From a virus, in IMG/VR virus record IMGVR_UViG_3300045988_068423, positions 1 through 39,123 of that record: a DNA stretch of 39,123 nucleotides; one strand, written 5' to 3'. Position 1 is the first letter of the stretch; every line of letters starts with the position of its first letter. The position numbers and the translations under genes were made by a program. This document shows, piece after piece, positions 4,346-32,800 of this stretch. The notes beneath the pieces were generated by a model that saw nothing but the letters and a program-made list of their open reading frames with translations, was not told where the DNA came from and ran no database searches.

Positions 4346-4600
4346 ATGACCGATACCATTATCGTAGCTCTCATCACCGGCGGCCTGTCGCTGCTGGGGG
4401 TAATTATCACCAGCAACAAGACCACCCGGGATGTACAGGCCAAGCTTGACACGCAGCAGGCTGTCACCGACACGAAGCTGGAGGAGCTGACCCGGGAGGT
4501 GCGGGAACACAACAATTTCGCCCGCCGTGTGCCGGTGATGGAAGAGCAAATCAAAGTCATTAACCACCGGATCGCCGATCTGGAACAAACCCATCAGTAA
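4346..4600 (+). CDS. Membrane-anchored coiled-coil protein of the lysis cassette
   Basis: AAGGAG RBS. N-terminal TM segment (IIVALITGGLSLLGVIIT) followed by a heptad-like helix. It sits directly upstream of the holin. Confidence 0.6.
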   Translation: MTDTIIVALITGGLSLLGVIITSNKTTRDVQAKLDTQQAVTDTKLEELTREVREHNNFARRVPVMEEQIKVINHRIADLEQTHQ

Positions 4601-4643
4601 TTTTGTGTTGTGCCCGATTTGGGCACGGAAAGGAGCAAAAACC

Positions 4644-4859
4644 ATGAAAATCCCCAACAAGCTGTACGACATTCTCAAGTGGGTGGTCATTATCGTGCTG
4701 CCCGCCGTGGCGACCCTGTATGCAGCCCTGTCCGCTGTCTGGGCGTGGCCGTACTCGGAGGAGGTCGTCACCACCATCACCGCCGTGGATACCTTCCTCG
4801 GCGCCGTGCTGTGCATCTCTGCGGCCACCTACAACAAGGGAGGCAAAGACAATGCCTAA
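4644..4859 (+). CDS. Holin (Dp-1/LL-H-like)
   Basis: AAAGGAG RBS, then ATG at 4644. MKIPNKLYDILKWVVIIVLPAVATLYAALSAVW...TAVDTFLGAVLCIS gives two TM segments in the Dp-1 holin pattern. Its stop overlaps the endolysin start. Confidence 0.75.
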   Translation: MKIPNKLYDILKWVVIIVLPAVATLYAALSAVWAWPYSEEVVTTITAVDTFLGAVLCISAATYNKGGKDNA

Positions 4860-5505
4860 AGTTTATCTGTCCCCCAGCAATCAGACCGAAAACCGCTACG
4901 CCTACGGCAACACCAACGAGGCCGAGCAGTGCGGCCGCATCGCCGAGGCCAGCCGCAAGGCGCTGGAGCGCAGCGGCGTGGAGGTGATGGTGGGGCACAT
5001 GCCCTCCATGCAGGAAAAGGTGCGGGCGTCCGACGCTTTCGGCGCCGACCTCCACGTCCCCATCCACACCAATGCCTTTAACCACAGCGTCATGGGCACC
5101 CGTATGTTTTGCTACAACGCCACAGGCAAAGGCATGGCGGCCTGTAAGGCGATTTTTGCCCGCGTGGCGCCCCTGTCTCCTGGCACCAGCGAAAACATTC
5201 AGGTGAACCCGAAGCTCTACGAGGTACGGGTGCCCAAGGCGCCCACGGCCTATCTGGAGTGTGAATTCCACGACACCGTGGAGGGTGCCAGATGGATCGT
5301 GGAGAACGCCGCCGCCATCGGCGAGGCCATCGCCCGCGGCATCTGCGACTACTTCGGCGTGACATTTAAGGAAAAGGAGAAGCCCGCCACCACCGATAAG
5401 CTCTACCGGGTGCAGGTGGGCGCATTCGCCAACAAGGAGAACGCTGAAAAGATGCTCCGGCGACTGAAGGACGCAGGGTTTGAGGGGTACATCCGAGAGT
5501 GGTAA
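4852..5505 (+). CDS. Endolysin: N-acetylmuramoyl-L-alanine amidase with C-terminal SPOR domain
   Basis: MPKVYLSPSNQ...HVPIHTNAF...ECEFHD is amidase_3-like. The C-terminal LYRVQVGAFANKENAEKMLRRLKDAGFEGYI is a SPOR motif. The ATG overlaps the holin stop. Confidence 0.85.
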   Translation: MPKVYLSPSNQTENRYAYGNTNEAEQCGRIAEASRKALERSGVEVMVGHMPSMQEKVRASDAFGADLHVPIHTNAFNHSVMGTRMFCYNATGKGMAACKAIFARVAPLSPGTSENIQVNPKLYEVRVPKAPTAYLECEFHDTVEGARWIVENAAAIGEAIARGICDYFGVTFKEKEKPATTDKLYRVQVGAFANKENAEKMLRRLKDAGFEGYIREW

Positions 5506-5597
5506 AACAAACCCACTGGAGGGCGCAGAGGATACCGATACGCCGACCTCGCGCTCGTGCATAAAGCATCCGCACCTCCACGGCTATTTTTTTGTGT

Positions 5598-5843
5598 ATG
5601 AACAGAAACCACAAGGCCGTAAGGGATTTTCTGTCAAATCTGCCGCCGAAACGAGCCGTTGCTTTTGTTGATTCTTTTTTGCTTCCTGACAATGAAGCGA
5701 TGGTGGTTATAGAATGCGATGTGCGCCGCAAAAGTTGCGTACAGGTATCTATGGAGCGGAATATGTCCGTTGAAACCGTAAAGCGGCACAGATGCAGAGC
5801 GTATCATAAAATTGCACAAGAACTATTTATCCCCCTGCCTTAA
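5598..5843 (+). CDS. Small sigma-70 region-4-like HTH protein
   Basis: The C-terminal MSVETVKRHRCRAYHKIAQEL resembles a region 4/LuxR-type HTH. The RBS is weak and the start is uncertain (TTG 5592 or ATG 5598). Confidence 0.5.
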   Translation: MNRNHKAVRDFLSNLPPKRAVAFVDSFLLPDNEAMVVIECDVRRKSCVQVSMERNMSVETVKRHRCRAYHKIAQELFIPLP

Positions 5844-5870
5844 CCGGCGGGGGGATTTTTGCTTTTTTTG
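5831..5870 (+). terminator. Rho-independent terminator
   Basis: CCCCCTGCC...GGCGGGGGG hairpin followed by ATTTTTGCTTTTTTT. Confidence 0.7.
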
Positions 5871-5878
5871 ACACTTTT

Positions 5879-5905
5879 CAGGCACTTTCGGGTGCCTGTT
5901 TTTTT
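5879..5905 (+). terminator. Rho-independent terminator (second of a tandem pair)
   Basis: CAGGCAC / GTGCCTG 7-bp stem with a 6-nt loop, then T7. Confidence 0.8.
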
Positions 5906-5935
5906 GTACCATAAAAGCAGAAAGAAGGTGGCAAA

Positions 5936-6073
5936 ATGTACGAACGGCTTATAGCCTGCGGTTACACGGAGCAAATGGCAAGGGATATTTTGACCTTGTT
6001 CCAAGACCCGGAAGAATTGCGGATATATGTATATTTTGCCGAACTGTTTTGTAAAGAAAGGACGGTATGTTGA
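5936..6073 (+). CDS. Small hypothetical protein (45 aa)
   Basis: GAAGGTGG RBS. MYERLIACGYTEQMARDILTLFQDPEELRIYVYFAELFCKERTVC. Its stop overlaps the next start. Below the ORF-track length cut-off. Confidence 0.4.
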   Translation: MYERLIACGYTEQMARDILTLFQDPEELRIYVYFAELFCKERTVC

Positions 6074-6465
6074 TGGCATTTAATCCTTATTATCAGAATC
6101 CATATCAGCCGATGGGATATAACGGCCAGTACGGAAATTATGCCCCCCAGAACGCCGCAGGAGCCACGCAAGCGTTTGCGTGCCAAATTACAAGGGTAAA
6201 CGGTAGAAACGGCGCAGAGGCTTTCAGAATGGCCCCAAACAGCTCCATTCTGCTGATGGATGAAAACGACCCCATTGTGTGGATGAAACAGACGGACGGC
6301 GCCGGGTATGCAACGGTAACGCCTTACACGGTTTCTCCGTATCAGGATACCCCGCCTGTGGATGTAAGCAGTCTGGAAGAACGCGTAAAGAGATTGGAGG
6401 ACACAATCAATGGCAAATCCAATGATGCAAATGCTGATGGGAAGCGGAAGCCGAAAGCCGAATAA
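6067..6465 (+). CDS. Hypothetical protein with a Q/N/Y-rich N-terminus
   Basis: MLMAFNPYYQNPYQPMGYNGQYGNY... followed by a folded-looking domain and a coiled C-terminus. ATG 6073 is an alternative start. Confidence 0.6.
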   Translation: MLMAFNPYYQNPYQPMGYNGQYGNYAPQNAAGATQAFACQITRVNGRNGAEAFRMAPNSSILLMDENDPIVWMKQTDGAGYATVTPYTVSPYQDTPPVDVSSLEERVKRLEDTINGKSNDANADGKRKPKAE

Positions 6466-6628
6466 CCCCCTTGCGATGGTGGCAGAGTTCCGAAAATTTG
6501 CTGCCGGCATGACCCCGCAAAAAGCACAGCAGGAAATCGAGCGGTTACTAACTTCTGGGCAAATGAGCAAAGAGCAGTTTGCCGATTTGCAGAAACAAGC
6601 AAAGGACTTTATGCAATTCCTAAAATAG
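6410..6628 (+). CDS. Small helical hypothetical protein
   Basis: GGAGG RBS 9 nt upstream. 72 aa, Met/Gln/Lys-rich. It overlaps the 3' end of the previous gene by 56 nt. Confidence 0.55.
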   Translation: MANPMMQMLMGSGSRKPNNPLAMVAEFRKFAAGMTPQKAQQEIERLLTSGQMSKEQFADLQKQAKDFMQFLK

Positions 6629-6678
6629 GCCGGGTCGACACGGTTTATTTATAAAAATTTATGAAAGGAGTTTTCCAC

Positions 6679-7290
6679 ATGGAGAACGGTATGTCTCTTA
6701 GCGATATCGCCGCTGTGACGCGCGGTACAAACGAAGAAAACGGCTGGGGCTCCGGCTGGTTTCTCATCGTTGTTCTGTTCCTGTTCATGTTCGGTTTCGG
6801 CGGCAACGGCTGGAATCGGCAGGGTGAGTTCGGGCAGTTCGCTACCGCTGCCAGCCAGCAGGAGATTCTCTTCGGCCAGCAGTTTGGGCAGCTCAACGAC
6901 CGCCTGACCAACATCGGTAACGGCATCTGCAATCTCGGGTACGAGATGCAGGGCGGCATCGGGCAGTTGGGCAAGGAGATGGCTTTGGCGCAGAACGGCA
7001 CCAACATGACCATCATGCAGACCAGCAACAGCATCCAGAGCCAGATGGCGCAGTGCTGCTGCGACACCCAGCGGGCCATTGATGGCGTAAACGCCAACAT
7101 CGAGGCCAAGTTTGCGGCGCTGGAGAAGTCTCAGCTTGAGCAGCGCATTGCGGAACAGTCCGCCCGCATTGCAAGCCTTGAGATGGACAATCGGATGTAT
7201 GGCGTGGTTCGCTATCCCAACGGCTACACCTACAACGCCGGTAATTCCCCCTTCTGCGGCTGCAATAGCTGCTGCGGCGCAAACATCTGA
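6679..7290 (+). CDS. Membrane-anchored Q/N-rich coiled-coil protein with Cys clusters
   Basis: AAAGGAG RBS. TM segment WFLIVVLFLFMFGF, internal CCCD motif, and a C-terminal FCGCNSCCGANI. Confidence 0.65.
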   Translation: MENGMSLSDIAAVTRGTNEENGWGSGWFLIVVLFLFMFGFGGNGWNRQGEFGQFATAASQQEILFGQQFGQLNDRLTNIGNGICNLGYEMQGGIGQLGKEMALAQNGTNMTIMQTSNSIQSQMAQCCCDTQRAIDGVNANIEAKFAALEKSQLEQRIAEQSARIASLEMDNRMYGVVRYPNGYTYNAGNSPFCGCNSCCGANI

Positions 7291-7322
7291 CAAAATCGAA
7301 AGGCCCCTTTTGGCCGGGTGAT

Positions 7323-7353
7323 GGGCGGGGCTTGTGTCCCGCCCCTTTAATTT
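7323..7353 (+). terminator. Terminator-like hairpin
   Basis: GGGCGGG / CCCGCCC stem with an 8-nt loop, followed by a weak T tract (CTTTAATTT). Confidence 0.45.
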
Positions 7354-7370
7354 AGAAAGGAGATTTTACA

Positions 7371-7772
7371 ATGTCTTGCAAATCTGCGATTTACACTGCT
7401 ATGCAGACCCCCACGGAGGTTGCCGTAAATGGTGTTATCCCTCTGGGAAGTCTTATCCGCCGCTATGGATGTGATATTTCTTTGAACGGAAACGCTGTCA
7501 ATATCGTTAGCAAAGGATATTATGATGTCGATGTGTCCATCACTGTATCCCCCACGGCGGCAGGGACGGTCACTGCAACGCTTATCAAGGACGGCGTGGT
7601 TGTTCCCGGTGCAACAGCCTCCGCAAATGCTGCGGCTGGCGCGCCTGTTGCGCTGGCATTCCCCGCTCTTGTGCGTCAGGCGTGTTGCGCATCCGGCTCT
7701 GCGCTGTCGCTGGTACTGACTGGCGCGGCATCCACAGTTAGTAATGTTGCCCTCCGGGTACAGCGCATCTGA
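7371..7772 (+). CDS. Beta-sandwich-like hypothetical protein with conserved Cys residues (BclA-C/C1q-like impression)
   Basis: AAAGGAG RBS. 133 aa, alternating beta pattern, Cys at positions 3 and 34 and a CC pair at 104-105. The fold call is an impression only. Confidence 0.6.
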   Translation: MSCKSAIYTAMQTPTEVAVNGVIPLGSLIRRYGCDISLNGNAVNIVSKGYYDVDVSITVSPTAAGTVTATLIKDGVVVPGATASANAAAGAPVALAFPALVRQACCASGSALSLVLTGAASTVSNVALRVQRI

Positions 7773-7784
7773 TGGAGGTGCGGG

Positions 7785-8096
7785 ATGAAAGTTATTGAGA
7801 AATTGGAAAATTTTATCGATAGCGAGATCCACGATGCAGAAGTATATGCAAAGTGCGCCCTAAAATACAAGGAATCCGACCCCACGCTTGCGAAACTGTT
7901 TTACGATTTGTCCACGGAAGAAATGCGGCACATGGATTTGCTACATGGAGAAGTTGTACGCCAGATTGAGCAGTATCGCAAGGCAAATGGTGAACCGCCC
8001 GCCTCCATGCAGGCTATCTATGATTATCTGCACGAGAAGCAAATCGACAAAGCAAATGATGTAAAGAGCTGCCAAAGCATGTATCGCAATGGGTAA
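7785..8096 (+). CDS. Helical hypothetical protein (possible ferritin-like four-helix bundle)
   Basis: GGAGGTG RBS. Contains DAEVY and EEMRHMDLLH (ExxH-like) motifs. It is the last gene before attP. Confidence 0.55.
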   Translation: MKVIEKLENFIDSEIHDAEVYAKCALKYKESDPTLAKLFYDLSTEEMRHMDLLHGEVVRQIEQYRKANGEPPASMQAIYDYLHEKQIDKANDVKSCQSMYRNG

Positions 8097-8112
8097 ATAT
8101 CGCCCGAAAAGT

Positions 8113-8131
8113 GATAGTAATTTGATAGTAA
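8113..8131 (+). repeat. attP arm-type repeats (GATAGTAA x2, 11-nt register)
   Basis: GATAGTAA at 8113-8120 and 8124-8131. The same core TAGTAA(C) recurs twice at 8350-8369 on the other side of the tRNA-derived core. Confidence 0.6.
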
Positions 8132-8245
8132 CCCAAACGATACGGCGCGGTATAGCGTAACATTTTCGCAAGAAAAACACCAATAAATACCGCACTATAC
8201 CGCTTTATTGCAACAATATACTGCGCTTTTCGAACTGGCTTACGC

Positions 8246-8290
8246 CTTTTAAGCAGGGTGTCCGGGGTTCGAATCCCCGACGGGGCACCA
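8246..8290 (+). other. attP core: 3' portion of a tRNA-Lys(UUU)-like gene (anticodon loop to CCA)
   Basis: Reads CTTTTAA (anticodon loop, UUU), GCAGG, GTGTC, CGGGG-TTCGAAT-CCCCG (T arm), ACGGGGC-A-CCA. No matching 5' half lies upstream. It is adjacent to the integrase. Confidence 0.75.
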
Positions 8291-8334
8291 AAAAAAGCCT
8301 TGAAACTCAACGGTTTCAAGGCTTTTTCTCTTTT
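8291..8334. terminator. Bidirectional rho-independent terminator
   Basis: AAGCCTTGAAAC / GTTTCAAGGCTT 12-bp stem, flanked by an A run upstream and a T run downstream. It ends the integrase operon on the minus strand. Confidence 0.8.
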
Positions 8335-8336
8335 GC

Positions 8337-9431
8337 TTATTTTTTATTTGTTAGTAACGTGTTAGTAACAGCATCCACAAGTGTCTGCGCGTCGATGTGC
8401 GTATATATGTTTGCGGTGGTGGAATAATCTGCGTGTCCGAGTATTTTTTGCAGCATTTCCGGTGGCAATCTCTCTTTTACCGCCCGGGACGCGTATGTGT
8501 GGCGTGTTGCGTGCGGGGTCTTGCGCTCTATGCCCAGCCGGTCAAGAAGTGGGTAAAAATCACGCCTGCGGAAGTTCGCCGGTACTTTTTGCCCATCGTA
8601 GCCGGATAACAGCAGCTCCCCCGTTGCTCGCTTCGCAAAGTAGGCAAAGTATTGTTTCCCCTCCGGGCGAATGGGGATAATTCGGTTTCGCCCGGCTTCT
8701 GTTTTTTCGCCGCCGATCACATAATCGCCGTGATAGTCTGCCAGCGGCAAAGAAAACAATTCCCCGATACGCATGCCCGTTGCCAGCAGCATCAAGACAA
8801 TTTTCGCCGCATCGCTGTTGTCGAATTTCAATTTACGGATATCTTCCTCCGTGAAGATGTCCTTTTCTTTTTTTATATTTTCTGGCAGCCGGACAAATTT
8901 TGCAAAATTTGTTGTGCAGATTTCCTCTCGGATTGCCCAGTTCGACATCTGCGTTATCAGCTGCTTGTACTTGTTCACGGTGGAATGGCTCTTGGCCATG
9001 TGTGGGTCAAGTACGGCCTGAAAGTCTGCGGTGCGGAGATCGCGAAACTTTTTCCCGTGCAACGGCGTAAATATGCGGTAGGCGTTGTTATATGATTCTA
9101 TCCCCTGCTTGCCGATTTCCTTGTAATGCTCCTCTTTCCACGCATCAAAGACTTCCGCAAAGGTCATATTATACCGCTCCGTTAAGCTCTTGCCGTTCAA
9201 CCGCTCCAAAGCGTCCAAAGCGTCCGTTTTGCGCTCATAGTGCCCGATAATCACTTTGTTTTTCGCGGCCACCCAAGGCGATTTTCTACGCCCCGCCAGT
9301 TTGTATACAGTTCCGGTGCCGTTTGCCCTCTTCGAAGCCTTGCGCCGCTCTGTTACCTGTTTTTTGCCACAGATATGGCAATATACAGCACCCGGGACAA
9401 GAGTTGTTCCGCATTTAATGCAGTTGCTCAT
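8337..9431 (-). CDS. int: Tyrosine integrase with N-terminal zinc-ribbon
   Basis: MSNCIKCGTTLVPGAVYCHICG zinc ribbon. C-terminal HATRHTYAS...LGHADYSTTANIYTH matches the R-H-R-Y catalytic signature. ATGA overlap with the upstream gene. Confidence 0.9.
   Translation of the reverse strand: MSNCIKCGTTLVPGAVYCHICGKKQVTERRKASKRANGTGTVYKLAGRRKSPWVAAKNKVIIGHYERKTDALDALERLNGKSLTERYNMTFAEVFDAWKEEHYKEIGKQGIESYNNAYRIFTPLHGKKFRDLRTADFQAVLDPHMAKSHSTVNKYKQLITQMSNWAIREEICTTNFAKFVRLPENIKKEKDIFTEEDIRKLKFDNSDAAKIVLMLLATGMRIGELFSLPLADYHGDYVIGGEKTEAGRNRIIPIRPEGKQYFAYFAKRATGELLLSGYDGQKVPANFRRRDFYPLLDRLGIERKTPHATRHTYASRAVKERLPPEMLQKILGHADYSTTANIYTHIDAQTLVDAVTNTLLTNKK
8350..8369 (+). repeat. attP arm-type repeats (GTTAGTAAC x2, 11-nt register), inside the int 3' end
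   Basis: GTTAGTAAC at 8350-8358 and 8361-8369, in the same orientation as 8113-8131. Confidence 0.55.
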
Positions 9432-10009
9432 TTTTCTGCTTCCTCGCCTTGTTTGGTTTTTTTGTCCGCCGCAAGAGTGGACAATAGCACGGATGTAAGT
9501 ACGCCGATACCCACCGCCAAAAGCGCAATGAAAATCCATGCAATCGTTCCGGCTGTCTTGGATCGGATCAGGCCTTCGTCCTGCACACGGTAATCAAGCG
9601 CCACATACCATGTAACTATACCCAGCAGGATAGCGGACAGCAGCGATGTGATATACAGCATCGTGCGCTGCCGCCTTGCTTTTTTCTTCTGCTCCTCTGC
9701 TGATTTAGACAGCTCATCGTATGCGCCCTCTATCCGTGCAATGCGCACATCCTCGTCATGGACTTGCTGAAGCTGCTTGATTTGGTCTTGCGCCAAAACA
9801 ACCTCTACAATGCCAAAGTAACGGTCCATAGACACCCCCAGCACCTTGCAGATGGGGCCAGCCGCATACACGCCTGGTGCTTTCGATGTGGATGCAAAAA
9901 AGTTGTTAACGCTGGACAAAGGCACACCGGATTGGTCTGCTATCTCCTGCGCCGTGATGTGCTGTTCCAGTTTTGCGTCCCGGCAAGTGTCCTGCAACGA
10001 TTTCTCCAT
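9428..10009 (-). CDS. XRE-type HTH protein with C-terminal transmembrane segments
   Basis: ITAQEIADQSGVPLSSVNNF is an HTH. Two C-terminal TM helices follow (LYITSLLSAILLGIVTWYV; IAWIFIALLAVGIGVLTSVLL). Start chosen at the RBS-preceded ATG. Confidence 0.65.
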   Translation of the reverse strand: MEKSLQDTCRDAKLEQHITAQEIADQSGVPLSSVNNFFASTSKAPGVYAAGPICKVLGVSMDRYFGIVEVVLAQDQIKQLQQVHDEDVRIARIEGAYDELSKSAEEQKKKARRQRTMLYITSLLSAILLGIVTWYVALDYRVQDEGLIRSKTAGTIAWIFIALLAVGIGVLTSVLLSTLAADKKTKQGEEAEK

Positions 10010-12344: not shown

Positions 12345-12635
12345 ATGCAAAAACATTACTACGCCATCGTGGCTGAAAAGTGCGGCGTCCGGGTAATTAT
12401 GCGTTCGGAGCGCAATGTGACCGAGGTGGGCGATCTGGTTTGCGGCAGCAATAAGACAACCGCATATTCCGTGTACAAGGTCATCACAGAGCCACACTTT
12501 GTTCTGTGCGGAACCAGCGATGACGATTTCCTGAACGCCATGTATGCGGGGGATATACCCCAGGTTTCCAAGGTCACCCGGGATGTGTGGAAGCTGGAGC
12601 CGGAAAAGGAGGATGCATCCGATGTGGACAACTGA
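12345..12635 (+). CDS. Hypothetical protein
   Basis: GGGAGGAATAAAG RBS before ATG 12345. 96 aa. Confidence 0.6.
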   Translation: MQKHYYAIVAEKCGVRVIMRSERNVTEVGDLVCGSNKTTAYSVYKVITEPHFVLCGTSDDDFLNAMYAGDIPQVSKVTRDVWKLEPEKEDASDVDN

Positions 12636-12816
12636 TCCGGTATGGGACGCGGAGTGCTACGCCGAAGAGCAGGACAGGCAGACTGACCGGTGCCCCGTGT
12701 GCGACTGCTGCGGGGAGCCGATTCAGGAGGATTGTGCATTGCATTACAAGGGGGTTTGGCTCTGTGGCGAGTGCGTCAGCAATAATGAGGAGTATATCGA
12801 GGAGGCGTGGGAATGA
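12622..12816 (+). CDS. Small zinc-ribbon protein
   Basis: AAGGAGG RBS 10 nt upstream. Contains CPVCDCCG...CGEC. Confidence 0.55.
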   Translation: MWTTDPVWDAECYAEEQDRQTDRCPVCDCCGEPIQEDCALHYKGVWLCGECVSNNEEYIEEAWE

Positions 12817-13481
12817 GCGATAACGGAGGAAAAGGAATGCTTAAATCATTTGATGAACTTGTAAAACTGGATGTGCGTCCTTACTGCGATGTGCGGGATG
12901 CAAAGGACGAAAGCGGGGAATTAATTAAAGTCCCCTATTTGAGCTGGGCAAAGTGCGTGAAACTGCTGCACGAAAACGGCGCGGAATCCGTTTGGTATGC
13001 GCCCGTTGAATGCCCGGAAACAAAGACCTATCTTTGGCCGCAGGCAAAAGTAGTCACGAGTAAGGGGCGGGAAACCGAGTGCTGGTTTGTGCGGGTGCTG
13101 ATCCACATTGACGGCATGGAATACACCTATGACACCCCGCTGCTGAACGGATCTCTTGTTGTATACACCGATACGCTGAACCAGCTCCGCATAAACAATG
13201 CCCTGGCGAGAGCATTTGTGAAGGGCGTTGCTGTCCGCACGGGGCTTGGATTTGACTTGTGGGCAGGGGGAGATACCGACGATGGCGAGGACGATTTGAG
13301 CCGCCATAGCATTTGGGCAATAAAAGAGCGGCTGGAAAGGCTCATCACCATCAAGGAAAAGAACGGCCTTGACCACCGAGATTTGCTGGCCAGTGTTGGC
13401 ATTAGCGACAAGCAGCTAAATAACCTTATGGGATATTTCGCGACGATTGACAAGCTTGAAAAGGCGGTCAGCAAACTGTGA
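12813..13481 (+). CDS. Single-strand annealing protein (DUF1071/Sak3-like recombinase)
   Basis: VPYLSWAKCVKLLHENGAE and ALARAFVKGVAVRTGLGFDLWAGGD match the pattern I recall for this SSAP family. It is paired with a downstream exonuclease. ATGA-coupled. Confidence 0.65.
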   Translation: MSDNGGKGMLKSFDELVKLDVRPYCDVRDAKDESGELIKVPYLSWAKCVKLLHENGAESVWYAPVECPETKTYLWPQAKVVTSKGRETECWFVRVLIHIDGMEYTYDTPLLNGSLVVYTDTLNQLRINNALARAFVKGVAVRTGLGFDLWAGGDTDDGEDDLSRHSIWAIKERLERLITIKEKNGLDHRDLLASVGISDKQLNNLMGYFATIDKLEKAVSKL

Positions 13482-14065
13482 TACGGAACCACGATAGGAG
13501 CGGATGGTTTGGAGCGTCGGACACGGCTGCGATTATGGGATCGTGGGACACAGAAACATTCCGCAGATGGTGGGCTGTAAAGCTTGGTATTCGGCAAGAC
13601 CATTTTGCCAATGCGGCGATGCAGGCCGGAACGGCATACGAACACAAGATACTGGATGCCGCAAATGTCCAAACGAGAGATAGGCAGATAAAAGTGCGCT
13701 GTTTGCGGCTGCGCGTGAATTACGACGGGGAAACCCGCGACATGATACACGAGGTCAAAACGCACAGCAAGCCCGTTTTTAAGGTCACCAAGGGATATTG
13801 GATGCAGTGTCAAGTGGAGATGTACGCCAGCGGATGCGGAATCTTTAGAAAGCGGAAAGCCTGCCAAATCATCGCATATCGGATGTCACCGGCGGAATAT
13901 GAGAATTTTTTCCTTCCGATCGACATGAATAGGCTTTCCGCTCACAAGGTCGAGTATGACAGCGAGTGGATAGAATCGCAGTATCTCCCACGCCTGCGAT
14001 ATTTGGCAAAATGCTTAAAGCGCGGGAAGTGGCCGCAGTCAGAGGAGGTAATATGCAGCAAGTAA
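13478..14065 (+). CDS. YqaJ-like PD-(D/E)XK exonuclease
   Basis: GTGA overlap with the previous gene. GASDTAAIMG...GTAYEHKIL...HEVKT match the viral recombinase exonuclease motif order. Confidence 0.7.
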   Translation: MIRNHDRSGWFGASDTAAIMGSWDTETFRRWWAVKLGIRQDHFANAAMQAGTAYEHKILDAANVQTRDRQIKVRCLRLRVNYDGETRDMIHEVKTHSKPVFKVTKGYWMQCQVEMYASGCGIFRKRKACQIIAYRMSPAEYENFFLPIDMNRLSAHKVEYDSEWIESQYLPRLRYLAKCLKRGKWPQSEEVICSK

Positions 14066-29861: not shown

Positions 29862-29890
29862 TTGACACAAATTATGCCGTGTGCTACACT
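29862..29890 (+). promoter_or_regulatory. Promoter of the serine recombinase gene
   Basis: TTGACA, a 17-nt spacer, then TACACT, about 30 nt upstream of the RBS. Confidence 0.7.
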
Positions 29891-29919
29891 ACCCTTACAA
29901 GATGAAGGGAGCAATGCAC

Positions 29920-30507
29920 ATGAAAGTCGGATATATTCGGGTGTCCACAGAGGAGCAGAACACGATCCGCCAAGAGGTACTGATGAAAGACCTTGGTGTG
30001 GAGCGTGTCTACATGGACAAAGCGAGTGGCAAGAGCCGCACAGGCAGGCCGCAGCTGGAAGCGATGATGGATTTCGTCCGAGAGGGCGATGTGGTCATTG
30101 TTGAAAGCATCAGCCGTTTTGCGAGAAGCACAAGGGACTTGTTGACGCTGGTAGAGCAGCTCACAGAAAAAGGTGTGGGCTTTGTATCGCAGAAGGAATC
30201 CATTGACACGAATACGCCGCAGGGCAAGTTCATGCTCACGGTGTTTGGTGCAATGGCAGAGCTGGAACGTGAGCAGACCTTACAGCGGCAGAGAGAGGGC
30301 ATAGCGGCTGCAAAAGCGGCTGGAAAGTACAAGGGTCGGCAACCAATAGCACTTAATGAAGAGCTGGTTAAATCGGTGCATGAGCAATGGTACAAAAACG
30401 AGATAACCACATCATATGCAATTAAGCAGCTTGGAGTGAGCCGCAATACCTTTTACCGCCGGATGTGGGACTACGAGGATTCTGCAGGAATCCCGAGACG
30501 GCGCTGA
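29920..30507 (+). CDS. Small serine recombinase (resolvase/invertase family)
   Basis: MKVGYIRVSTEEQ (catalytic Ser), ...VVIVESISRFARS..., and a C-terminal HTH (YAIKQLGVSRNTFYRR). Confidence 0.9.
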   Translation: MKVGYIRVSTEEQNTIRQEVLMKDLGVERVYMDKASGKSRTGRPQLEAMMDFVREGDVVIVESISRFARSTRDLLTLVEQLTEKGVGFVSQKESIDTNTPQGKFMLTVFGAMAELEREQTLQRQREGIAAAKAAGKYKGRQPIALNEELVKSVHEQWYKNEITTSYAIKQLGVSRNTFYRRMWDYEDSAGIPRRR

Positions 30508-30529: not shown

Positions 30530-30913
30530 ATGAAAAGATTGGCTTGTTTTGTATTGTGCCTTGCGCTGGTTCTTTCTGTGACGGCGTGTGGGAAGCAGTA
30601 TAGTGAGTTTTACCGAAATAGCCCGGATGCCGCCTCTTTGATGGAGGACGCAATCGAACTTTTGGATATGTGCATAAACAAGGAGATAACCGCCGAGGAG
30701 TGTGCAGAGCAGTTGCAAACAATGGGAGAGCTTAACCGAGGCGGAGATGATATAAACATAAGCTCCACGGCACTCAGAATATCTATTGCGGGGCATCAAA
30801 TTGACGGCGTTTTGCTTGGCGTGAGAATTGGGTATAAAACAATGATCGATGTCAAAAACGCCGTGAAGGAGCAGCGAGAATCTTTATACAACAGTCTGCA
30901 TGGGAAAGAATAA
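30530..30913 (+). CDS. Lipoprotein
   Basis: GGAGGAAAGAG RBS. Signal peptide with lipobox LSVTAC. Lower GC than the genome. Confidence 0.75.
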   Translation: MKRLACFVLCLALVLSVTACGKQYSEFYRNSPDAASLMEDAIELLDMCINKEITAEECAEQLQTMGELNRGGDDINISSTALRISIAGHQIDGVLLGVRIGYKTMIDVKNAVKEQRESLYNSLHGKE

Positions 30914-30972: not shown

Positions 30973-31077
30973 ATGGATAAAAAGGTTTTGGCAATTTTAG
31001 TTGGTGCTATTTTGATTATTGTTGGCGTAGTTTTTGCGTTTCAAGGCGGCGGGGCGTTGGGATACTACGCCGGATAA
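30973..31077 (+). CDS. Small membrane peptide (34 aa)
   Basis: AAAGGAGG RBS. MDKKVLAILVGAILIIVGVVFAFQGGGALGYYAG. AT-rich codons. Confidence 0.5.
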   Translation: MDKKVLAILVGAILIIVGVVFAFQGGGALGYYAG

Positions 31078-31147
31078 CAAGGACGGAAAACCAAATAGAA
31101 TGGACTACCGATTTTCCGGCAGTCCATTTTTTATTGCAGGAGGACAA

Positions 31148-32800
31148 ATGGATTATCGGAAGATTGCGGAAAGCATCAAAAACCGCATAAAGAAAACGCA
31201 TGACCGGGAAGCCTACAAGGATTTGCTGGCGTTGTGCATTGGGTACGAAGCGGAAGATTTTGCTGCGGCGCACCAGTTAAATTCCGAAGTCCGAAAGATG
31301 ACCTCCGAGGCACTTCGTAACGGAAACCCAAAAGATGCGGAGTATTTCTACACCCTACATAAGCAGGCCATGCTGTTTGACGCGCCGCATGATTTCGATA
31401 CCTTCCTGCTGTATGTGGAGATGGACAGAAAGCCGGAGAAGCGGTTTTATGCTCCACGCAGGCGGTATCTAAGACCTATTGTGCAGGGGTATCAAGATGT
31501 CCTTGACGGCAAATTGAGGCTGCTGACCATTTCGCTTCCGAAAAGAGCCGGGAAAAGCCAGCTGGGAATCAATTTTATCAACATGGTTTCCGGGAGAAAC
31601 CCGGATAAATCGTCCCTTATGGAAGGCACGGGCGATGATCTTGTGCGAAGCTTCTATAACGGCTGTCTGGAATATCTGCAAACGCCAAACGAGTATTTGT
31701 TCTACGATGTGTTCCCGGATGCTCCATTGGTGCAGACCAACGCAGACACGAAAATTATCAATCTGCGGTCTAAATCCAGATTCCCCACGGTCATGTGCCG
31801 GTCGATTGACGCACGGCAGGTTGGCTTGTCGGAGGCAACCAATGTCCTTTATTTAGATGACTGTGTGGAGGGCAGAGAGGAAGCGAAAAACCGTCAACGG
31901 CTGGATGATAAGTGGGAAGTAATTTCCGGCGATATTTTAGGCCGTGCCATCGAGGGTACGCCTATTGTGGCCACCGGGACGAGATACTCCCTATATGACC
32001 CAATAGGGCATTTACAGGAAGAAGCGCAAAAAGGCGGCTGGACATGGAAAGCCATTGAAATCCCCGCCCTTGACCCAATTACAGACGAAAGCAATTATGA
32101 GTATGAGCGGGAGGGTAAAAAGGTTTTTACCACCGCTTATTTCCGCGAGCAGAGAGAGCTTCTGAGCACGGAACAGTTTGAAAGCGAATTCCAGCAGCAG
32201 CCATTTGAAGCAAAAGGGCTGCTTTTCAATAAGTCGGAGCTGAACTATTTCTTTGAACTGCCGGTAGATCGTGACCCGGATGCAATCATTGCCGTGGCAG
32301 ACACCGCAGAAAGCGGGAAAGACAGCACGGCGATGCCCGTTGCGGCCTTATATGGAGAGGAAGTCTACATCGTGGATGTGGTGTACGATGATTCTCCCGC
32401 AGAGGTCACAAAGCCGGAATGCGCAAAGTGCCTGATTGACAACAAAGTGGGCGATGCACTGTTTGAATCCAACAACGCCGGTATGTATTTTGCGAGAGAT
32501 GTTGCAGAAATCGTCAAAAACGCCGGATTTAACACCAGCATACGGACAAAAAGGACGATTTCCAACAAGCAGACAAGAATTGAGTTTGCATCGGATGGAA
32601 TCAAGAAGAATTTTTACTTCAAGCATCCGTCCACATACAAGAGAGGGTGTCAATACTGGGGATTCATGCAGGAAGTGACCACCTATGTAAGAAGCGGCAA
32701 GGTGGCGCACGATGACGCGCCTGATTCCTTGTCGTTGCTGGAGAACGAAATCCGAAACCGCATCAGCGGCAAGATTGAGATATTCAAAAGACCGTTTTAA
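31148..32800 (+). CDS. terL: Terminase large subunit (headful/pac type likely)
   Basis: GCAGGAGG RBS. Walker A LPKRAGKS, Walker B-like LYLDD, and a C-terminal nuclease region. Confidence 0.9.
   Translation: MDYRKIAESIKNRIKKTHDREAYKDLLALCIGYEAEDFAAAHQLNSEVRKMTSEALRNGNPKDAEYFYTLHKQAMLFDAPHDFDTFLLYVEMDRKPEKRFYAPRRRYLRPIVQGYQDVLDGKLRLLTISLPKRAGKSQLGINFINMVSGRNPDKSSLMEGTGDDLVRSFYNGCLEYLQTPNEYLFYDVFPDAPLVQTNADTKIINLRSKSRFPTVMCRSIDARQVGLSEATNVLYLDDCVEGREEAKNRQRLDDKWEVISGDILGRAIEGTPIVATGTRYSLYDPIGHLQEEAQKGGWTWKAIEIPALDPITDESNYEYEREGKKVFTTAYFREQRELLSTEQFESEFQQQPFEAKGLLFNKSELNYFFELPVDRDPDAIIAVADTAESGKDSTAMPVAALYGEEVYIVDVVYDDSPAEVTKPECAKCLIDNKVGDALFESNNAGMYFARDVAEIVKNAGFNTSIRTKRTISNKQTRIEFASDGIKKNFYFKHPSTYKRGCQYWGFMQEVTTYVRSGKVAHDDAPDSLSLLENEIRNRISGKIEIFKRPF

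Follow-up and report, generated by a model that had tools for sequence, protein, structure and literature searches.

A Self-Contained Accessory Gene Module with a Putative Dedicated Regulator in Temperate Phages of Gut Clostridia

Several described systems serve as points of reference for the accessory genes of temperate phages. Morons, or lysogenic-conversion cassettes, are known from lambda and HK97 and from the toxin genes of streptococcal prophages. Phage activators of the Alt (lactococcal phage TP901-1), RinA, and ArpU families use repeat arrays upstream of promoters without a −35 element, and the two-component spanins Rz/Rz1 belong to phages of Gram-negative bacteria. Half-size ferritin-like proteins include the encapsulated ferritins, and BclA_C/C1q-like domains are found, among other places, at the tips of phage fibres. 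The BclA_C domain caps the filaments of exosporia and endospore appendages, in which CC motifs are the covalent connectors (PMC12357932). Here we analyze a locus in a complete, circularly permuted temperate siphovirus-type genome, IMG/VR record IMGVR_UViG_3300045988_068423, whose entire 39,123 nucleotides are referred to below as the window. Six small genes, g1 to g6 (positions 5936–8096), stand directly after sig, a gene for a small helix-turn-helix (HTH) protein. We tentatively read the six genes as the effector part of a self-contained accessory module (sig plus g1–g6) that is exchanged as a block, activated by Sig, and responsible for a membrane assembly coupled to prophage induction.

The module is a functional unit that is more conserved than its neighbors, near-universal in its phage lineage, and dispensable. 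An earlier sequence-only reading of the region had listed six co-oriented open reading frames (ORFs), and all six are present on the + strand. They also co-occur outside this phage, in a gene order that recurs in more than 200 independent contigs, which makes the cassette more than a product of chance. When the window proteins were searched by tblastn against 165 loci, the order and strand of sig-(g1)-g2-g3-g4-g5-g6 were kept in about 140 viral loci. This order held where identity fell to about 27% for the tail proteins, 26–29% for the integrase, and about 35% for the repressor, with the lysins likewise under 30%, and these comparisons of identity show a module better conserved than the adjoining tail, lysis, and integration genes. 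Profile hidden Markov model (HMM) searches of 24 species-level genome loci in which g4 is 25–90% identical recovered g2 and g3 in 17 loci, g5 in 14, and g6 in 9, with the genes always in order; several of the loci that lack some genes are cut by contig ends. Among loci sampled through the lysis gene hol1, and not through the cassette genes, and with enough downstream sequence, 44 of 47 carry g2, g3, and g4 together, a near-universal distribution that differs from that of a sporadic moron. Thousands of uncultured temperate phages of Clostridia from the human gut carry the module. Its taxonomic range, as judged from host bins, is phages of Clostridia and some Bacilli, and the binning of phage contigs is unreliable. 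None of the cultured phage and plasmid records searched carries the module or holds an annotated homologue, and cultured Bacillus and Clostridioides phages have no homologues. A look-up of homologue clusters returned no informative names and literature searches returned no description of the module. The gene combination, the core families of g2, g3, and g4, and the regulatory elements are undescribed, and two members probably belong to known superfamilies.

Exchange of the module as a block is visible in its varied surroundings. The same g4 protein, without a single change, accompanies three types of lysin, integrases of either the tyrosine or the large serine class, and differing attachment sites. 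In two loci, L021 (Coprococcus comes) and L178, the whole module has a gp7-like minor-capsid gene on one side and the scaffold gene on the other; a papain-like ORF, a transmembrane (TM) plus coiled-coil ORF, and a sig-like ORF come before it there. In L024 the module occupies an early region. The idea of a discrete, terminator-bounded unit next to attP is supported, with the changes that the module is not bound to attP and that it includes the HTH gene and regulatory DNA. Remote modules (L019–L022, L024, and L178) repeat the cassette architecture, and L249 carries a replacement variant. Apparent exceptions hold divergent analogues, such as a 187-residue protein with a TM segment, DCCCG, and a CGCNGN tail. 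A separate g5–g6 submodule was considered and dropped because the loci that seemed to be without g2–g4 hold such analogues. An extra ORF of 125–150 codons lies just 5′ of remote modules (7030–7407 in L019, 6689–7147 in L020, and 5987–6376 in L178) and also 5′ of g2 in L016. It has conserved Cys (G-D-C-V-V/I-R-A), His (G-H-V-V), and ...DTWDSG... motifs and resembles a small papain-like peptidase, with no match in Pfam.

Within the window, the cassette has a GC content of 0.51–0.54, the same as the rest of the sequence. The good ribosome-binding sites (RBSs) that had been described could be read directly as AAGGTGG for g1, GGAGGA for g3, AAAGGAG for g4 and g5, and GGAGGTG for g6. A set of proteins without enzymes had been anticipated as well, and scans with Pfam, PHROGs, NCBIfam, and PADLOC recognized no enzyme domain. 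Profile searches placed none of the proteins in a virion-structural family either, with no structural PHROG and no structural Pfam family matched. The PADLOC defence models gave only ZorA coiled-coil noise at 12–14 bits, DUF3992, DUF4183, Cot, and Exs profiles had no Pfam or NCBIfam match to g1–g6 at E ≤ 1, and the cassette encodes no lipobox protein. The individual sequence features attributed to the cassette proteins are likewise all there: g2 has its Y/Q/N-rich N-terminus, g4 its TM segment, CCCD, and C-terminal FCGCNSCCGANI, g5 its Cys3, Cys34, and CC pair, and g6 its ExxH. Direct reading found no signal peptide in g1, g2, g3, g5, or g6, which leaves g4 as the only cassette protein with a membrane or export signal.

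The product of g4 (6679–7290, + strand) is a single-pass membrane protein of 203 amino acids (aa) that matches phrog_16490, a family of unknown function, at 3e-18. The start at 6679 is most likely correct, as it is the start of almost all homologues and the AAAGGAG site falls inside the alternative ORF from 6661. Besides a TM segment near residues 27–44 and a pair of long helices, the protein has an internal CCC motif and is rich in Cys at its C-terminus. Homologues fall into 5009 clusters when grouped at 90% identity and into 816 when grouped at 50%, and none of the 150 best-scoring of those 816 clusters contains a fused domain. The motif A-x-CCC-[DET] is present in 124 of 145 diverse members, which have a median of eight Cys residues, about four of them in the last 30 residues. 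Searches of the PDB, Pfam, NCBIfam, and PADLOC with g4 yielded only coiled-coil noise; Collagen_mid, the tail of ZorA, HR1 of the coronavirus spike, and influenza HA2 were all matched and all rejected as coiled-coil or compositional in origin.

Upstream of g4 are three small genes. g1 (5936–6073, + strand; an ORF with an RBS) encodes 45 aa with a conserved YVYFAELF and is limited to the closest clade, where the frame stays open in five sequence variants, the most distant of them 63% identical to g1 of the window; it has no family match in Pfam, PHROGs, NCBIfam, or PADLOC. g2 (6073–6465, + strand) has 467 homologues, most likely starts at 6073 to give 130 aa, to judge from those homologues, and matches phrog_21718, of unknown function, at 8e-9. 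Its N-terminus is disordered and Y/Q/N/P-rich, and a small alpha+beta domain and a coiled-coil helix follow before the chain ends in a basic tail. An AlphaFold2 (AF2) model of g2 is of moderate quality, with a predicted local distance difference test (pLDDT) score near 80 at residues 38–113 and below 50 elsewhere, and a Foldseek search of the PDB with this model returned nothing significant (best E 0.23, SH2-like). In BFVD there are 22 matches to g2, all uncharacterized proteins of uncultured phages, on contigs labeled siphovirus, myovirus, and podovirus; the names given there to g2 relatives ("zipper", "Gal4-like", "membrane fusogenic") derive from the coiled coil and were rejected. g3 (6410–6628, + strand) encodes a 72-aa helical protein that matches phrog_22984, of unknown function, at 4.5e-13, has weak SHOCT-like matches in 2 of 14 members, and is always located between g2 and g4. 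The 56-nucleotide overlap of g2 and g3 is confirmed and retained in relatives. This overlap pattern suggests translational coupling of the two genes. The overlap (6410–6465) is out of frame, with g3 in +1 relative to g2, and is conserved in close relatives; remote modules have shorter g2/g3 overlaps of 8–31 nucleotides.

Probable families could be named at the 3′ end of the cassette. g5 (7371–7772, + strand; 133 aa) aligns through residues 12–132 with positions 6–126 of the Pfam BclA_C model at E = 4.8e-5 and 23.7 bits, under the 38-bit cut-off, and many g5 relatives at 80–90% identity carry a precomputed PF18573 assignment. A g5 profile built from 11 diverse members found BclA chains as its only PDB matches, at E values of 0.004–0.05. 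The protein at the g5 position in L021 also matches BclA_C (2.6e-4), and the one in L019 reaches a probability of only 5% against the g5 profile in hhalign. Cys34 is invariant and Cys105 nearly invariant in the family. By these profile matches, g5 is probably a stand-alone BclA-C-terminal-like protein of the C1q/TNF superfamily. The protein first described as a beta-sandwich is BclA_C/C1q-like, a domain of the kind found in exosporium-filament caps, and the statement that no named family could be assigned is superseded for g5 and g6. GXY repeats and an exosporium leader are absent from the 133 residues of g5, and the NCBIfam exosporium-leader model was not matched. g6 (7785–8096, + strand; 103 aa) scores 22.0 bits (E = 2.3e-4) against Pfam Rubrerythrin, just under the 22.8-bit cut-off, and a g6 profile matches helices A–B of the ferritin BfrB at 1e-4 and bacterioferritins at 0.5–2. 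Residues E14, Y21, E46, H49, and H83 do not vary among 11 diverse members, whose identity goes as low as 31%. By profile and conserved residues, g6 is probably a half-size ferritin-like protein; with its single ExxH it falls short of a full four-helix bundle, in which one chain would supply both E/ExxH halves. It probably binds a di-iron center, which would require a dimer because the 103 residues supply only one ExxH. At the g6 position of remote modules (L019 9173–9481, L020 9086–9508, L022 8962–9681, and L178 9050–9610), helical proteins with a G/Y/R/S/N-rich low-complexity middle, for example SYRGNMGGSWGSYNSNGNSGYSGRRGRGRDGRY, stand in place of the ferritin-like one.

In terms of regulation, the DNA ahead of the cassette carries several conserved elements. 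sig (5598–5843, + strand; ORF listed from a TTG at 5592) encodes an 81-aa protein with a sigma-70-region-4/LuxR-type HTH (Pfam Sigma70_r4_2, E = 1e-3; NCBIfam sigma-70 subfamilies), and its profile matches the RNA polymerase sigma factor 7qh5 (4e-4) and LuxR-type DNA-binding domains in the PDB. A sigma factor was considered and rejected, as the protein has only a region-4-type match (residues 31–78 of 81–83 aa) and region 2 is absent. sig lies directly 5′ of the cassette in nearly all loci and is a candidate HTH regulator that would act as the cassette activator. In L178, the sig-like ORF (6703–6903) has an in-frame TAG after 32 codons, for which a pseudogene, a sequencing error, or read-through is possible. 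Between the endolysin stop codon and the sig start lies a GC-rich leader of about 90 nucleotides (5506–5597, + strand) that is conserved at the nucleotide level in diverged loci. In an RNAalifold analysis, its outer helix UGGAG/CUCCA covaries to UGAGC/GCUCA and UGGAC/GUCCA. The leader matches no Rfam family and may be a cis-regulatory RNA; an Rfam scan of positions 5400–8500 as a whole also gave no credible match. Within the leader, a Shine–Dalgarno-like GGAGG pairs with an anti-Shine–Dalgarno-like CACCUCC segment.

The sequence-only reading had placed two tandem terminators upstream of the cassette. Both hairpins exist, and one is better viewed differently. The first (5829–5856, + strand) has an 11-bp stem with eight GC pairs and a T-rich tail, contains the sig stop codon in its loop, and resembles a terminator that ends the lysis/sig transcript; relatives have equivalent hairpins of different sequence 3′ of sig. 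The second hairpin or palindrome (5879–5898, + strand) lies inside the cassette regulatory region, where it overlaps the conserved repeats and −10 region, and probably belongs to a promoter or operator. This regulatory region (5868–5912, + strand) comprises repeats, the hairpin, a T-run, and a −10-like element, with the phased repeats GACACTTTT / GGCACTTTC at 5870–5888 and TACCAT at 5907–5912. The arrangement CACTTT-N-CACTTT occurs once in the window against 0.02 expected. A second copy of TTTTGTACCAT (30387–30397), inside a resolvase gene on the other strand, was judged to be chance. Diverged loci have two to four CA(C/G)TTT-type motifs with a period of about 11 bp upstream of the first cassette gene, or in some loci the reverse complement GACCAAAC in their place. 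The order of elements 3′ of the repeats is a GC hairpin, a T-run, GTAyCAT(A), 8–12 nucleotides, AAGGAGGTG, and ATG. The T-run and −10-like element are present in 38 of 49 unique upstream regions against 0.6% of shuffles, and strictly phased pairs of GRCNNTTT in 26 of the 49 against 0% of shuffles. L178 has a perfect TATAAT at the −10-like site and L039 has an insertion of about 45 nucleotides between the −10-like element and the RBS, and because of these two variants we argue that the hexamer would be the −10 box of an activator-dependent promoter. A −35 element is not present in this promoter-like region. Sporulation consensus sequences for sigma-E, K, F, and G were tried and did not fit the −10-like element and its upstream spacing. 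Insertions of 1.1–2.1 kb with opposite-strand genes separate sig from the cassette in L137, L154, and L162, and the repeat/−10 region of these loci stays immediately 5′ of the cassette. Two further hairpins lie between g4 and g5 (7302–7344, + strand). The one at 7323–7344, GC-rich with a T-rich tail, is the hairpin that had been noticed before g5; the hairpin is kept with differing stems in diverged loci, with compensatory changes in three pairs, and suggests attenuation between g1–g4 and g5–g6.

The surroundings of the module complete the picture of a prophage end. Tail genes extend up to 4328 and are followed by a gene for a TM plus coiled-coil protein (4346–4600), a Dp-1-type holin gene (4605–4859), and an endolysin gene with Amidase_3 and SPOR domains by Pfam (4852–5505). 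The succession 3′ of the endolysin gene is sig, the cassette, a tRNA 3′ fragment, and a tyrosine integrase gene on the opposite strand. The attP core (8244–8297, + strand) is the 3′ part of a tRNA gene, and the T-arm GGTTCGAATCC, acceptor strand, and CCA can be read directly at 8250–8290; ARAGORN found no complete tRNA at this segment, which other phage contigs (H6 and H7) have at their ends with 98% identity. A terminator (8292–8327) comes directly after the att core, and the integrase gene (8337–9539, − strand; Pfam Phage_integrase, 7.8e-18; phrog_1) lies outside the module. Where relatives that share an identical g4 are integrated, g6 borders directly on tRNA genes and on host DNA or genes. 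The claim that the cassette in the window adjoins attP is upheld. In L249, the prophage end abuts a host CotJA-CotJB fusion gene (12486–13037, − strand) and an Amidase_3 gene (13083–13655, + strand), and because CotJA-CotJB flanks the prophage, this phage lineage has at least one endospore-forming host; cotJC is not seen at the expected place beside the junction. Elsewhere in the window, just 5′ of the large terminase gene (31034–32800), are genes for a small serine recombinase of the resolvase/invertase type (MKVGYIRVSTEEQ...; 29881–30507, + strand) and a predicted lipoprotein with a signal peptide ending in LSVTAC (30530–30913, + strand).

In the mechanism that we tentatively favor, transcription of the lysis genes would run into sig and stop at the 5829–5856 terminator. 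There is no + strand terminator between 5505 and 5598, so late transcripts must include sig, and it is this missing terminator between the endolysin gene and sig that leads us to couple the module to induction. Sig would then bind the phased CA(C/G)TTT repeats and activate a sigma-A-type promoter that has a −10 element of the form TAyCAT and no −35. More g1–g4 product than g5–g6 product would result from the attenuator at 7323–7344. g4 would insert in the cytoplasmic membrane and form a helical, probably oligomeric stalk, with its CCC motif and Cys-rich tail binding metal or cross-linking once oxidized. g2 and g3, translationally coupled, could serve as adaptors or scaffolds, and a C1q-like g5 oligomer, with a domain that looks suited to oligomerization or recognition, and the ferritin-like g6 (probably di-iron) would dock on the g4 scaffold. 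The assembly would be switched on with or just after late transcription rather than constitutively in the prophage, and its site of action would be the producing cell's membrane or envelope, where an aid to the envelope or to egress, exclusion, and stress protection are candidate pay-offs. A surface fibre, which was among the assemblies first suggested, is unlikely in the form of a Sec-exported fibre on growing cells because g1, g2, g3, g5, and g6 are without signal peptides. Several observations weigh against the mechanism as drawn. The sig start at ATG 5598 has no Shine–Dalgarno sequence 5′ of it and a structured leader ahead, so late transcription need not give Sig protein. A near-consensus extended −10 upstream of sig in L064 would allow expression in the prophage state. 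The promoter and its interaction with Sig through the repeats are inferred from conservation alone. The AF2 model of g4 has a pLDDT of 43 and, although the helix layout is visible, is unusable for a fold search, and the flanking K+R content (0.77 vs 0.96) favors neither topology of g4. g6, which accompanies g4 in only 9 of the 24 distant loci, may be a looser partner.

A classical lysogenic-conversion operon is unlikely, though it deserves serious weight. It would have its own prophage-state promoter, with Sig made from a promoter in or before the leader, and would alter the lysogen; examples are exclusion of superinfecting phages at the membrane and, through the ferritin-like and Cys-rich proteins, tolerance of oxygen or metals. 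Terminator insulation together with regulatory DNA of its own, the usual site at the prophage end next to attR and reading outward, exchange as a unit among otherwise different phages, the ferritin-type metal ligands retained in g6, and the extended −10 consensus 5′ of sig in L064 are all in its favor, and natural variants that are without g2–g5 or replace them imply that these genes are dispensable for the phage. However, the cassette is near-universal in the lineage (44 of 47 loci) rather than sporadic, its base composition is that of the genome, no promoter is evident before sig in the window, where sig continues the lysis transcript, and no protein matches a known defence or exclusion protein. 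The idea that a mobile phage module makes spore-forming gut Clostridia build a coat-like layer on the forespore or cell membrane, with g4 stalks that Cys residues could cross-link, g5 heads, g6, and prion-like g2/g3 scaffolds, strikes us as fairly improbable. In its specific form, which we consider quite improbable, the module would be expressed in the mother cell, g4 would sit in the outer forespore membrane with its Cys-rich domain toward the mother-cell cytoplasm, and g2, g3, g5, and g6 would form a coat- or exosporium-like layer on g4 that is cross-linked on exposure to oxygen. The likeness of g5 to the BclA_C/C1q-type domain that caps exosporium and endospore-appendage filaments (PMC12357932) fits this form, and so do soluble partners that all lack signal peptides as coat proteins do, a Cys-rich and Tyr/Gly/Gln/Asn-rich composition, CotJA-CotJB beside the prophage in a host of the lineage, and confinement of the module to phages of Clostridia and some Bacilli. 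The −10-like element and spacing misfit the sigma-E, K, F, and G consensus sequences, though, and L178 has a plain TATAAT; a collagen-like stalk, an exosporium leader, and any ENA or coat family match are absent; cultured Bacillus or Clostridioides phages have no homologues; and some bins are Subdoligranulum and Oribacterium, which are described as non-sporulating, with the reservation that phage-contig binning is unreliable.

The location of the module directly 3′ of the holin and endolysin genes in most loci raises the question of a lysis or egress accessory, similar to a spanin or fusion protein, in which g4 and its partners would remove a last envelope barrier such as an S-layer. The partners would reach the wall through holin lesions, or the membrane would be remodeled at lysis. 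A hol1-like TM plus coiled-coil protein accompanies the module even among head genes, the helix layout and Cys content of g4 resemble those of i-spanins, and the g4 profile has faint matches to the heptad regions of class I fusion proteins. Such a role is nevertheless very unlikely in our estimate: the hosts are monoderm and therefore present no second membrane, the fusion-protein and ZorA matches are non-significant and typical of coiled-coil noise, terminators part the cassette from the lysis genes, and variants without g2–g5 exist. Accessory virion proteins, such as a C1q-like decoration or receptor-binding protein with assembly factors, would explain the position between minor-capsid and scaffold genes in L021 and L178 and the lack of signal peptides, which virion proteins share, and the occurrence of BclA_C/C1q-like domains at fibre tips is in line with them. 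We regard this as an outside chance, given that no structural PHROG category or Pfam virion family is matched, the position varies among the lysis end, head region, and early region, the g2 relatives in BFVD come from siphovirus, myovirus, and podovirus contigs, the best-conserved member is the membrane protein g4, and the unit is terminator-bounded with its own regulator. Finally, the six genes could be unrelated small morons adjacent by chance and form no system. The restriction of g1 to the closest clade and the detection of g6 in 9 of 24 distant loci point that way. This account is hardly credible, and co-occurrence already refutes most of it: g2-g3-g4-g5 retain their order and strand even where identity is as low as about 26–33% and at different genomic positions, g2 and g3 overlap, and a shared regulator and regulatory region accompany the block.

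Oscillospiraceae and Lachnospiraceae are dominant in the human gut, and a large share of their temperate phages carry a member of the g4 family. A module whose conservation exceeds that of the genes for tail, lysis, and integration, and which brings its own regulator, must be of importance to the phages or their hosts. Assigning a role to it would annotate thousands of "hypothetical" genes and may reveal a new route for prophages to change gut commensals in their envelope, spores, tolerance of stress, or resistance to phages. If the coat-layer reading were true, prophages would remodel the spore or cell surface and hence the transmission and oxygen survival of abundant gut anaerobes. The leader, the small HTH protein, and the phased repeats are direct experimental handles.

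Comparison with known systems places two of the proteins near familiar structures. Like BclA, g5 aligns over almost the whole BclA_C domain and its profile matches only BclA chains in the PDB, and its conserved Cys residues and CC motifs are reminiscent of those that connect ENA and L-BclA proteins covalently (PMC12357932). Unlike BclA, g5 stands alone at 133 aa without a collagen-like stalk or exosporium leader, scores below the Pfam cut-off, and is carried by phages in Oscillospiraceae and Lachnospiraceae rather than in the Bacillus cereus group. g6 resembles ferritin and bacterioferritin in matching helices A–B, where E-x6-Y ... E-x2-H supplies the ligands of half a di-iron center. It differs from rubrerythrin in having no rubredoxin domain and from the encapsulated ferritins in that no encapsulin shell or targeting peptide was recognized for it. 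As in the Rz/Rz1 spanins, g4 combines an N-terminal TM segment, two long hinged helices, and Cys residues and is encoded after the holin and endolysin genes, whereas it shares no sequence similarity with them, has no outer-membrane lipoprotein partner, belongs to phages of monoderm hosts, and is part of a separate transcription unit. With morons and lysogenic-conversion cassettes, the module shares its terminator boundaries (5829–5856 upstream, 7323–7344 internally, and 8292–8327 after the att core), its promoter-like region, its dispensability in some relatives, and its usual place at the prophage end. It departs from them in consisting of six genes with a dedicated regulator, in being almost universal in its lineage, in its phage-like base composition, and in occurring also inside the head-gene cluster. 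The regulatory DNA resembles in design that of Alt, RinA, and ArpU, where a small HTH gene likewise stands beside a promoter-like region with phased repeats and only a −10 element. In contrast to those activators, sig encodes an 81-aa sigma-region-4/LuxR-type protein, lies after the endolysin gene, and would control an accessory operon instead of structural genes.

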